Source: a virus. From it: a stretch of DNA of 64,000 nt. The stretch's first letter is position 1, and every line of letters begins with the position of its first letter. The stretch is taken from IMG/VR virus record IMGVR_UViG_3300044655_001360, one strand, 5' to 3'. The notes under the pieces are model-generated. The model did not search any database and was not told the DNA's origin. It was given only the letters and a program-made list of their open reading frames with translations. Shown in pieces: positions 19,014-24,766 of this stretch. Both the position numbers and the translations under genes were made by a program.

Positions 19014-19436
19014 TTAATCATCTTTTAGATCTCGGACAAAGACGGTATGATGTACATATTCGCCATTACGAGTTTGAAAATGTAGGCCAGTGGGTTCCAG
19101 CCACGCAGTATACTCTTTAGATTTTATACGGCCTGATTTGTTTACGTCACACCAGTATTGCATATACCAAAAACCATTAAATCTTGGATGATTCTCAAGT
19201 AAGCAACCCATTTCTTCATCACAAGGTAATCTCCATCCGATCTTACCTTCTATGTTTAAAGAAAATGCGTAAAGTTTTGCATCTGCCCAAGTCAGTTGCC
19301 TGCAGTAATGACTGGGTGCAATTTCTATTTTCAACGACTCGTAAACCTCGATTGGTTCAATTGGCTTAGGCTTTAGTTTTAAGGATTGCAGGAATTGGTC
19401 GTCTGTCATTTGGTTTTCCTTGTTGGTATTAATCAT
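19014..19436 (-). CDS. DUF1566/CLec-fold small protein (start may be 19409)
   Basis: IEIAP...WADAKLYAFSLNIEGKIGWRLP...VRDLKDD. Confidence 0.7.
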   Translation of the reverse strand: MINTNKENQMTDDQFLQSLKLKPKPIEPIEVYESLKIEIAPSHYCRQLTWADAKLYAFSLNIEGKIGWRLPCDEEMGCLLENHPRFNGFWYMQYWCDVNKSGRIKSKEYTAWLEPTGLHFQTRNGEYVHHTVFVRDLKDD

Positions 19437-19770
19437 CTTTTAGATCTCGGACTGGAATACAGTAAATATCATCCATATACTTGCTCGCCAATCTCTGACT
19501 ATTCCGACTGGACATAAACCAAGCAATGTCCTGTCCATTTTCTTCTGACCAAATCTCAAATTCATGGTCTAGCGGTGAGGATACTCGTAATATAATACTG
19601 TTCAACTCAAATAACGTAGGTAATCTCCATCCAACTATACCCTTGTCATTCAGAGAAAAGCAATACATCTTGGCTTCTTCCCAACTCATTTTCTTCCAAT
19701 ACGTCGAATCCGACAGTTGGCATGGAAATGGTGGAGTTGGTGGGTAAAGTTTTGTTGAAAAATAAGTCAT
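19429..19770 (-). CDS. DUF1566/CLec-fold small protein
   Basis: WEEAKMYCFSLN...GWRLPTLFEL...PVRDL; ATG at 19770 overlaps the upstream stop. Confidence 0.7.
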   Translation of the reverse strand: MTYFSTKLYPPTPPFPCQLSDSTYWKKMSWEEAKMYCFSLNDKGIVGWRLPTLFELNSIILRVSSPLDHEFEIWSEENGQDIAWFMSSRNSQRLASKYMDDIYCIPVRDLKDD

Positions 19771-20078
19771 AGGTCTCTCACTGGTCTGACAAGGCATCTA
19801 CCGACAAAGGTATTATAATCACTGAAATAGATGACGTCATTCCATCCAGAAGTTGGGTGAGTATTAAACGATTTAAACCAAACTCCGTTTTCTACTTCAG
19901 TGGATGACCAATACCAATTTCGGCTAAAATCATTGATACAGGTATAGATCCCATCTAATTCTTCTATTGTAGGCAATCTCCAACCTATTTTACCATCAAT
20001 GTTAAGTGAAAAGCAATATAGTTTTGCTTCTTGAAAAAGCAGAGGTGCTTCGTATTTTTTTGGTGCTATTTCAATCAT
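19767..20078 (-). CDS. DUF1566/CLec-fold small protein
   Basis: IEIAPK...GWRLPTIEEL...WYWSSTE...VRPVR. Confidence 0.75.
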   Translation of the reverse strand: MIEIAPKKYEAPLLFQEAKLYCFSLNIDGKIGWRLPTIEELDGIYTCINDFSRNWYWSSTEVENGVWFKSFNTHPTSGWNDVIYFSDYNTFVGRCLVRPVRDL

Positions 20079-20160
20079 TTGTTTTTCCTATTGGCTCGCC
20101 TTCGGCTCGCAAAGTGATTACATTATCTTTTAGGCTTTATGCCTCGCAAAAGTCCAAAGG

Positions 20161-20451
20161 TTAAGTGATTGATCTGACTGCTATAACGTAGCCGAGGCCG
20201 TAGTTCTTATTGGTGAAGTTCTGAAGTCCATTCGACATAGCCTGACACCAGGCGTAGCCATTGTTCTCAGTAGAAGACCAGTACCAATATTTTTCAAAAT
20301 CATTTTCTGAAAGGTATATCTCATTTAATTCATCTATGTTAGGTAATCTCCAACCAGATTTTCCATTTACATTAAGGGAGAAACAATAAAATCTGGCATC
20401 AAACCAGTTGGTTTGAATCTCGGTTGATTTGGGTGCTATTTGAAAGTTCAT
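20161..20451 (-). CDS. DUF1566/CLec-fold small protein, candidate DGR target
   Basis: GWRLPNIDEL, WYWSSTE and YVIAVR motifs; NNC-rich 3' end. Confidence 0.8.
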   Translation of the reverse strand: MNFQIAPKSTEIQTNWFDARFYCFSLNVNGKSGWRLPNIDELNEIYLSENDFEKYWYWSSTENNGYAWCQAMSNGLQNFTNKNYGLGYVIAVRSIT

Positions 20452-20475
20452 TGGGTTTCCTATTAGTTTTTGTGT

Positions 20476-23600: not shown

Positions 23601-23681
23601 TGGTCTTCCACCGCCGCTGATTGGGCTATGAGAACCGTGGCCGTCGATAGTAACTGGTTTGAAGTGTTTTTTCCAAGACAT
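20637..23681 (-). CDS. gp20: portal protein (gp20-like), intein-containing
   Basis: [28 protein letters not shown], TLPGG and [12 protein letters not shown] motifs. Confidence 0.95.
   Translation of the reverse strand: [1014 protein letters not shown]
21306..22607 (-). mobile_element. 434-aa intein with HNH-type endonuclease in the portal gene
   Basis: [13 protein letters not shown] start, block B [23 protein letters not shown], end [15 protein letters not shown]. Confidence 0.9.
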
Positions 23682-23819
23682 TTAGATTAATCCTATTCTG
23701 TTGAATGTTTCATCTATTTATTAGTTTGGAAAAGGTGGTTTTACTAAAAGATAATCGAATTGGTTATTCTATTATCTTTTAGGTTTTATACCTCGCAAGA
23801 ATAGGATTTCTATTATCTT

Positions 23820-24113
23820 TTAGTGATCCCGAATGGCTCTAACGTAGTAGCCGTCGAAGTTTTTACTGCCGTTGCCGGTCTGGTAGCCGCCGAAGAAATT
23901 CTGAACCCAGACGTAGTCGCTATTGTCCTCAGTCGAGGACCGGTACCACAGTTTTTCAAAATCATTTTCTGATTTATAAATCAAATTCAGTTCTTCTTTA
24001 GACGGTAATCTCCAACCGGTTTTACCATCTACATTGAGAGAAAAACAGTATAGTTTTGCATCATCCCAATTTGATTGGATCTCTGTTGATTTAGGTGCTA
24101 TTTCGAAGTTCAT
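23820..24113 (-). CDS. DUF1566/CLec-fold small protein, candidate DGR target
   Basis: close paralog of 20161-20451; 22 of 34 codons in the 3' variable segment end in C. Confidence 0.8.
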   Translation of the reverse strand: MNFEIAPKSTEIQSNWDDAKLYCFSLNVDGKTGWRLPSKEELNLIYKSENDFEKLWYRSSTEDNSDYVWVQNFFGGYQTGNGSKNFDGYYVRAIRDH

Positions 24114-24121
24114 GTGGTCAC

Positions 24122-24766
24122 CTAATCCAAATCACGCACTAGAATTACCTTACTTGTCCATTTGGTGTCATGTTTATTGCATTCTACGCTGTGCTCTTGA
24201 TCATACATCCATTGATAAGGTTGATCTAGCCACGCGGATTTAAGATTTTCATTGGTCAACGATAAGGTATTCCATTCTAGGGCTGTTGGCAATCTCCAAT
24301 CGTTTTTTCCGTCTATATTTGCAGAAAATGCTACCATTTTAGCATCACCCCACGTATAGGATTGCTCAAAATGCGTTGTTTCTAGTTTTAAACTTAGATC
24401 AACTGGGAAGTTTATGTAATCGACTTCTTCTGAATAGTACCCATTTGATTCACCAACCCATCTTATATCAACATAACCTTTTCTGGTTGCGAATTTATAG
24501 AATGTCCATTTTCTTGACCGATCTTCCCATTCAGTTTCCACAATTTCATGCTTACTCACTGATTCAGCCATTAAGAGAGGTTCGCCAATCAAATCTGATA
24601 AGTCACCAGTGATGTCTTCTACGGTTACAGATTCGCAACATTGTTGTTCATGCCAAAATTTAAAGCATTCGTTTTCTGTTATGAACAGCATTTGCTTATC
24701 GTGTTTGGTTCCTTTTATTTCAACAATAGTTTTTCCAAGCATTTCTTCGAGTATTGTAGCAGTCAT
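24122..24766 (-). CDS. common phage accessory domain fused to a C-terminal CLec-like domain
   Basis: N-terminal HEQQCCESV...WTFYK...GESNGYYSE; C-terminal WGDAK...DWRLPT...VRDL. Confidence 0.6.
   Translation of the reverse strand: MTATILEEMLGKTIVEIKGTKHDKQMLFITENECFKFWHEQQCCESVTVEDITGDLSDLIGEPLLMAESVSKHEIVETEWEDRSRKWTFYKFATRKGYVDIRWVGESNGYYSEEVDYINFPVDLSLKLETTHFEQSYTWGDAKMVAFSANIDGKNDWRLPTALEWNTLSLTNENLKSAWLDQPYQWMYDQEHSVECNKHDTKWTSKVILVRDLD

Follow-up and report, generated by a model that had tools for sequence, protein, structure and literature searches.

Stand-alone Lcl_C/DUF1566 genes of a T4-like phage with C-terminal tails that appear to derive from a diversity-generating retroelement

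In phages, the diversity-generating retroelements (DGRs) known so far almost exclusively switch the specificity of tail fibres and have their target next to them, and remote targets are not expected of phage-associated DGRs (PMC5758913). Variable regions (VRs) of the DUF1566 type constitute category d (CLec2) of Wu et al. (2018), with Legionella LdtA as prototype, and about half of the category d targets are short proteins made of DUF1566 alone (PMC5758913); among 224 jumbo phages surveyed, lectin-fold domains of this kind were not reported (PMC7824862). The 64,000-nt stretch of IMG/VR record IMGVR_UViG_3300044655_001360 considered here (the window, to which all positions refer unless a contig is named) is from a T4-like phage, probably a giant one, and holds seven related genes of the Lcl_C/DUF1566 family, so that what looks like DGR-written sequence stands in multi-copy, tiny, non-structural genes behind early-type promoters. 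An earlier reading of the DNA alone (the original prediction) took these genes for remote targets of a DGR encoded elsewhere. We find that the C-terminal tails of two of them, 20161 and 23820 (genes are named by their first window position), were very probably written by DGR retrohoming, and we put at roughly 60% the probability that both tails are now orphan or rarely serviced DGR copies that evolve by recombination. In addition to what the original prediction contained, we report a cognate avd–template–reverse transcriptase cassette in a syntenic relative, two types of template and, from a complete genome without a reverse transcriptase (RT), near-perfect VRs.

All seven genes match Pfam PF07603 (Lcl_C), as the DUF1566-like character ascribed to them implied, two above and five below the gathering cut-off of 34.9 bits. 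Across 276 database homologues of the mini-gene, strong conservation of the head contrasts with hypervariability of the tail, and the next relative of the 23820 protein in this set is 74% identical. The heads of 20161 and 23820 (first 57 codons), correctly described as very similar, differ at 40 of 171 bases, chiefly at third positions (11, 7 and 22 by codon position 1, 2 and 3), and have a GC content of 32–35%; over the ~37 codons at the end (YWSSTE to YVRAIR) GC rises to 48% in 20161 and 53% in 23820 (window overall, ~38%). The switch to NNC codons claimed for this part is evident as well, since 15 of 37 codons end in C in the 20161 tail (binomial p 7e-5) and 23 of 37 in the 23820 tail (p 2e-11), given a background of 14.1% in the long open reading frames (ORFs) of the window. 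Counts of NNC and NNT at two-fold codons of 29 family members are 139:378 for heads and 215:230 for tails (p 7e-12), the bias ranging between individual paralogues from 14:4 to 0:18, and 98.5% of the residues at the variable positions of 84 homologues are reachable by NNC, versus 72% in heads. The fixed anchors ACT GAG, TGG, CAG, AAR AAC and TAC GTT are present and recur in real template repeats (TRs) of relatives; at the 3' end of the VR, the site of a putative IMH-type element, the mini-genes share TAC GTT AGA GCC, followed by a loosely similar stretch, and in the 23820 tail the nearly invariant Trp of YWSST is replaced by Arg. VR signatures had been extended to the whole family, which went too far: a recognizable VR is found in two of the seven genes. 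Compared with the relative G001 (51 kb, CheckV completeness 9%), which is collinear with window ~6,000–50,000 at 88–96% identity, gene 19429-19797 is ~97% identical over its full length and gene 19014-19436 is 97% identical; the tail of 19767-20078 shows indels and mosaic segments relative to G001 and no NNC bias.

Templates that fit these tails exist in related phages. A stricter pattern applied to metagenome contigs gave L269 and L270, in which VR end, bAvd, TR and RT follow one another and the TR has the length architecture and scaffold codons exactly as in the mini-genes; of the RTs, the one on L271/L272 is closest (92% identity), and the L271 cassette comprises bAvd (PF22296) and RT (PF00078). 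The L270 VR differs from its own TR at 20 of 43 adenine sites and at 0 of 65 others. Measured against the L270 TR, the 23820 tail differs at 19 of 44 adenine sites and 7 of 64 others and has one codon extra (p 2e-4); measured against the L271 TR, the 20161 tail differs at 17 of 43 and 7 of 62, respectively, and has one codon fewer (p 9e-4). Sister genes match the templates more closely, with mismatches to the TR at 19/45 adenine and 2/63 other sites in the G001 orthologue of 20161, 20/45 and 2/63 in a gene of L015, and 15/44 and 1/64 in a gene of L055, and to the L270 TR at 20/44 and 1/64 in the gene of G006 and G003; in the remaining paralogues the adenine bias falls off in a gradient to none. 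Since binding loops vary under any model, codon positions inside the template AAY codons were compared as well. Positions 1–2 are changed at 19/34 sites and position 3 at 1/17 in 23820 (p 6e-4), 17/32 and 3/16 in 20161 (p 0.03), 20/34 and 0/17 in the G006 gene, and ~23/34 and 9/17 in old paralogues; the heads show the opposite pattern, diverging mainly at codon position 3. Considering the adenine bias, marked without being exclusive, together with the concentration of change at AAY positions 1–2, which spares position 3, we regard writing of both window tails by DGR retrohoming as very probable. Additionally, 20161 is of the ..QNM.. type of L271 and 23820 of the ..QNF.. type of L270, templates that differ from each other at 5 positions, so one TR could not serve both; the reservation made in the original prediction, that the two tails also differ by indels and at non-adenine positions, holds.

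The L270 VR (1688-1796, minus strand) is one codon shorter than its own TR (832-942) without a non-adenine mismatch, so insertions or deletions within AAC runs may date from retrohoming itself or from shortly afterwards. In L269, otherwise near-identical, the RT frame (74-1213) is split into two ORFs where L270 is intact throughout, which points to decay of this DGR copy or to a misassembly. Classical DGRs were also found, by DNA-pattern scans and a tail profile, in the small phage contigs L204, L207, L222, L226 and L099, with a long-form Lcl_C target, an Asn-rich TR ~670 nt downstream, an RT, and mismatches at adenines exclusively, and an Asn-rich pattern scan recovered solely TRs serving long-form targets; we rejected these small-phage DGRs as the cognate writers, the mini-gene tails having 20–30% non-adenine mismatch to their TR and another length.

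The L271 cassette is tied to the left end of the window by synteny. Its gene order runs VR end, bAvd, TR, RT, sulfotransferase, glycosyl/methyltransferase, a 318-aa gene, 2OG-Fe(II) oxygenase, a 373-aa gene and a fibre-like gene; L271 6929-7572 corresponds to window 173-816 at 83% nucleotide identity and later L271 genes to window 1641-3311 at 70–75%, which would place the DGR of L271 ~5 kb beyond window position 1. Gene 946-1477 is the homologue of the long-form target that adjoins the DGR in relatives: in L270 and L271 the VR beside the DGR shares its final 49 nt, and the sequence downstream, with the end of this gene at 94–96% identity, and in the rest of its tail adenine bias is absent (19/44 versus 30/64 other sites). 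Its frame is broken at a G9 tract (1428-1436), 14 codons past a good start codon, and its N-terminus matches an intact 179-aa gene of L330 whose frame continues through the same region; the tract marks either a pseudogene or a slippage switch. A GC-rich intergenic hairpin of variable stem occurs at window 1554-1605, 18913-18964, 20516-20557 and 24883-24934, and its identity over 24/24 nt at L269:2267-2290 ties a DGR-bearing contig to this phage lineage.

In the window and its nearest relatives neither component of a DGR came to light. Repeat finding and an nhmmer tail profile revealed no TR, that is, no headless copy of the tail, in the window and G001, and two RT searches, one with the Pfam model RVT_1 and one by tblastn from six DGR RTs, which recovered the RTs of the control contigs G007 and G009, revealed no RT in the window, G001, G002, G003, G006 and G008. 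G001, G002, G006 and G008 lack bAvd as well, and no TR was seen in G002 and G008 either. The distant relatives G006 (372,016 bp, terminal repeats, CheckV completeness 100%) and G002 (306 kb, 85% complete) have ~50% and ~35% amino-acid identity to the window phage, and the complete G006 genome contains neither RT nor TR. At the syntenic locus, L330, L331 and L333 (three of four relatives) are without the avd–TR–RT cassette; L330 is the relative nearest to the window in the oxygenase gene (85% amino-acid identity). Its 15.8-kb contig is without an RT; three long-form Lcl_C genes (2805-3311, 4407-5339 and 9357-9896, one of them two-domain) stand there around the sulfotransferase/glycosyltransferase block, the place of the DGR in L271. 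An IMG/VR search with the L271 RT gave nothing above 65% identity, and G008 was rejected as a multi-target DGR, its candidate TR proving to be coding. Of the proposal that the genes are remote targets of a DGR elsewhere, the DGR origin of the tails therefore stands, with avd–TR–RT cassettes in L269/L270 and L271/L272, and a search for the RT and the template repeat that it called for found neither in the window, its 95% relative G001 or the complete 372-kb relative G006.

Whole genes of this family come and go as small cassettes. The two-gene cassette 24122/23820 (window 23721-24954, 1.2 kb), of which 24122-24766 is the first gene, is absent from G001, which in turn possesses a pair of additional mini-genes at window ~34280-34308 and one more within the array. 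The insertion/deletion junctions between window and G001 lie at copies of the 12-mer CTAAAAGATAAT, beside sigma-70 consensus promoters and GC-rich hairpins; 12-mers and hairpins stand at the borders of the window-only cassette and of the G001-only two-gene cassette alike. Besides the copy over the 23820 stop codon, copies at 20122, 20483, 23744, 23771, 24840 and 24930 mark cassette edges, and others are at 161, 1547 and 31815-32836; the sites fall in a promoter spacer (the 20483 copy, ahead of the array), at gene stops and at cassette junctions, and the 12-mer is not found in the distant relatives G002 and G006. The TTGACA/TATAAT-type promoters of the original prediction are confirmed as sigma-70 consensus promoters ahead of both transcription units (Table 1). 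Moreover, the mini-gene heads keep 70–76% DNA identity even between G002 and the window, with other proteins 25–40% identical, and such conserved head DNA amid diverged proteomes suggests lateral transfer.

We suggest the following course of events. The last ~37 codons of 20161 and 23820 would have been written by mutagenic DGR retrohoming from an Asn-codon-rich repeat of the kind that still stands beside bAvd, RT and a long-form Lcl_C target in T4-like giant relatives. After writing, the tails would have acquired a one-codon indel and a small number of ordinary substitutions and would now be inherited like normal genes, new combinations arising by homologous recombination among alleles and paralogues, and whole genes would be gained and lost as small cassettes flanked by an early-type promoter, CTAAAAGATAAT and GC-rich hairpins. 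The retroelement itself would be patchy in the lineage, either absent from this strain or lying outside the window and seldom active on these copies. Tail inheritance is consistent with this scheme. Among pairs with close heads the tails are stable in 4/5 and divergent in 1/5; in particular, the 20161 tail shows 2 substitutions relative to the L056 allele, from a strain ~5% diverged, L022 has the G001 two-gene cassette in identical form although the flanks are 5% diverged, the G003 and G006 tails are identical, and the exact 23820 protein, on record on a contig of 164,682 bp, is present in three assemblies with its tail assembled without breaks. The L056 allele, with a diverged segment in its head and a downstream spacer of the G001 type, is a recombination mosaic.

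The strongest competitor of orphan status is an active DGR outside the window, for example to the left of position 1, that now rewrites 20161 and/or 23820 and so maintains a live library. We consider this unlikely, although several observations speak for it and thereby weigh against our preferred explanation. In this strain the RT and TR searches cover a 64-kb window of a ~165-kb record; an intact bAvd–TR–RT of L271 lies ~5 kb from the orthologue of the oxygenase gene 213-878, and a contig of the window's own strain has, as in L271, a minus-strand gene to the left of that gene, so that an RT is possibly still present in this strain ~5 kb beyond the left edge. The adenine bias is significant in both tails, and the 23820 tail, with the strongest NNC bias among 38 family members examined, looks young. 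The divergent pair mentioned above is window 20161 and G001 31950, whose heads are 98% and tails 72% identical: the G001 gene is nearly perfect against the L271 TR (2/63) and its differences from the window allele are nearly confined to the VR, which fits recent homing in the clade, and the replaced segment, which begins a few bases upstream of the template-homologous part, could reflect homing or allele import. The 7 non-adenine mismatches may mean that the template of this strain has diverged, not that the VRs are old, and, the L270 VR beside its real DGR being itself one codon off its TR, length differences are compatible with targeting. Against live rewriting stand the same 7 non-adenine mismatches in each tail, the F and M template types and different tail lengths, which go beyond one TR, the retention of the 20161 tail relative to L056 over 5% genome divergence, the unbroken assembly of the tails in three assemblies, the state of 946-1477, which keeps a conserved VR end yet is frameshifted and has a tail without adenine bias, and the lack of the cassette at the syntenic locus in 3/4 relatives. 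The live remote targeting implied by the original prediction is therefore not upheld, stable orthologous tails, non-adenine differences, one-codon indels and a patchy cassette all telling against it.

Rather improbable, in our judgement, is that the tails were written in trans by co-infecting DGR carriers or that diversified cassettes were imported by recombination. The mini-gene tail at G006:C1:330150-330262 (L224:6705-6817) matches the L270 TR at 63/64 non-adenine sites in a complete genome with neither RT nor TR, and was either imported ready-made or written in trans; mini-gene heads of phages with only 25–50% identity in their other proteins have 70–76% DNA identity, a two-gene cassette is identical in strains with 5% flank divergence, and, according to work cited in PMC5758913, avd, TR and brt can work in trans when placed on a plasmid. 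In these data, however, transfer of a finished gene looks the same as rewriting in trans, and the identity of the G006 and G003 tails indicates no ongoing change. A wider version, equally doubtful, would make the single avd–TR–RT of some giant phages a shared writer for dozens of dispersed, stand-alone and early-expressed lectin-fold genes, including those of RT-less co-infecting relatives, with cassettes spread by recombination; if true, it would mean a population-level, retroelement-fed library of intracellular binders and not a switch of tail-fibre tropism. Finally, it is highly improbable that no retroelement was ever involved and that the NNC tails reflect selection on a Gly/Asn/Tyr/Ser-rich loop or local codon preference, for although the positions that vary form binding loops in a lectin-like fold, which would vary in any family, and some paralogues have no NNC bias at all, we reject codon usage or selection alone on the head/tail contrast, in which the same amino acids are NNT-coded in heads (139:378 versus 215:230), and on the codon-position bias, in which changes relative to real templates fall at positions 1–2 and spare position 3, while sister genes match a TR except at 1–2 non-adenine sites and 98.5% of variable residues are NNC-accessible.

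Table 1. Lcl_C/DUF1566 family genes, variable-region-type tails, promoters and 12-mer in the window
Feature	Position	Strand	Remarks
96-aa stand-alone Lcl_C/DUF1566 gene with variable region	20161..20451	-	PF07603 E 2e-12, 47.8 bits, above cut-off
97-aa stand-alone Lcl_C/DUF1566 gene with variable region	23820..24113	-	PF07603 E 1.6e-11, 44.9 bits, above cut-off
103-aa Lcl_C mini-gene without DGR-type tail	19767..20078	-	PF07603 E 5.5e-7, below cut-off
122-aa Lcl_C mini-gene, conserved	19429..19797	-	PF07603 E 1.9e-7, below cut-off
140-aa Lcl_C-like gene, conserved	19014..19436	-	PF07603 E 1.6e-3, below cut-off
214-aa protein, DUF7448 and C-terminal Lcl_C-like part	24122..24766	-	PF24240 E 3.8e-27; PF07603 E 1.2e-3
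Long-form Lcl_C gene, frame interrupted	946..1477	-	PF07603 E 2e-5 at 946-1161, below cut-off
Variable-region-type tail of 20161, YWSSTE to YVIA, M template type	20179..20283	-	
Variable-region-type tail of 23820, YRSSTE to YVRA, F template type	23835..23945	-	
Sigma-70 consensus promoter TTGACA-16-TATAAT ahead of the 20161-19014 array	20476..20503	-	12/12 matches
Sigma-70-like promoter TTGACA-16-TATACT ahead of the 24122/23820 cassette	24801..24828	-	11/12 matches
12-mer CTAAAAGATAAT over the stop codon of 23820	23812..23823	-	one of 29 window copies

Window gene 20637-23681 encodes a gp20 portal of 1014 aa split by an intein with an HNH-like part; the G001 orthologue (C1:25851-29471) has two inserts and 1206 aa, compared with the one intein here. 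The full genome of the window phage is probably ~350 kb or larger. Among GenBank phages, DNA matches to the window are limited to 200 nt of the portal, and the 23820 protein has no match. Gene 1823-2878 (351 aa) contains about eight 23-residue (69-nt) repeats at window 2177-2710, its L271 counterpart having 373 aa, and four tandem 52–55-bp repeats lie at window 32870-33080, in a long ORF-free stretch beside an RNase H gene.

The mini-gene proteins lack a leader peptide, and this, together with the consensus sigma-70 promoters, makes early-expressed cytoplasmic binding modules our best guess for their role: the mini-genes are presumably expressed early, and their products are putative intracellular binding proteins; an anti-defence or host-takeover role, as proposed in the original prediction, is conjectural. 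Continued servicing of the library, whether in cis or in trans, would represent a new use of DGRs, the diversification of intracellular phage effectors; if servicing has ended, these genes would provide a clear natural example of DGR products that outlive their retroelement and are then recycled by recombination. This is relevant to surveys of DGRs, which count solely VRs with a TR and RT nearby.

Considering the known systems in turn, the two genes resemble the DUF1566/DUF823/Fib_succ_major class of DGR proteins in Pfam family, C-terminal VR, AAY-derived codons and adenine-specific substitutions. They differ from it in belonging to a multi-copy family (seven genes in the window and more elsewhere in the genome), in residing in a T4-like giant phage of lytic type, in being leaderless and behind sigma-70-type promoters, and in having no TR or RT in 64 kb and non-adenine changes in the VR. 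As to fold, the mini-gene profile matches the C-terminal domain (CTD) of Lcl, a collagen-like protein from Legionella (8Q4E; E 2.6e-9, residues 32-95), the closest solved structure by profile and a DUF1566 C-type-lectin-like domain (PMC11162425); Lcl-CTD is secreted, forms trimers, sits on a collagen stalk and binds glycosaminoglycans (PMC11162425), and the likeness is one of sequence profile, an AlphaFold2 model from a 35-sequence alignment being too poor for use (pLDDT 47). The L270 and L271 cassettes, ordered target VR, bAvd, TR and RT and with adenine-only substitutions, parallel the BPP-1 DGR (mtd-avd-TR-brt), which has a single adjacent tail-fibre target, whereas here stand-alone ~97-aa domains lie distant from any RT. 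The DGR of Treponema denticola, with its seven remote targets, likewise combines many dispersed paralogous lectin-fold targets with one template; on the account given in PMC5758913 it resides in a bacterial chromosome and its targets are lipoproteins that all match the TR, in contrast to the window family, which has different lengths, two template types and mostly aged copies. Finally, like the promoter early stem-loop (PeSL) cassettes of T4-type phages, the mini-genes are small genes in variable regions between core genes (PMC2839356, PMC4122927). PeSL borders are composites of an early promoter and a stem-loop, and indels between close relatives occur at these motifs (PMC2839356, PMC4122927), a pattern that the window cassettes match; the motif here differs in carrying a lineage-specific 12-mer, at 29 copies per 64 kb, and in that its cargo is repeatedly one gene family.

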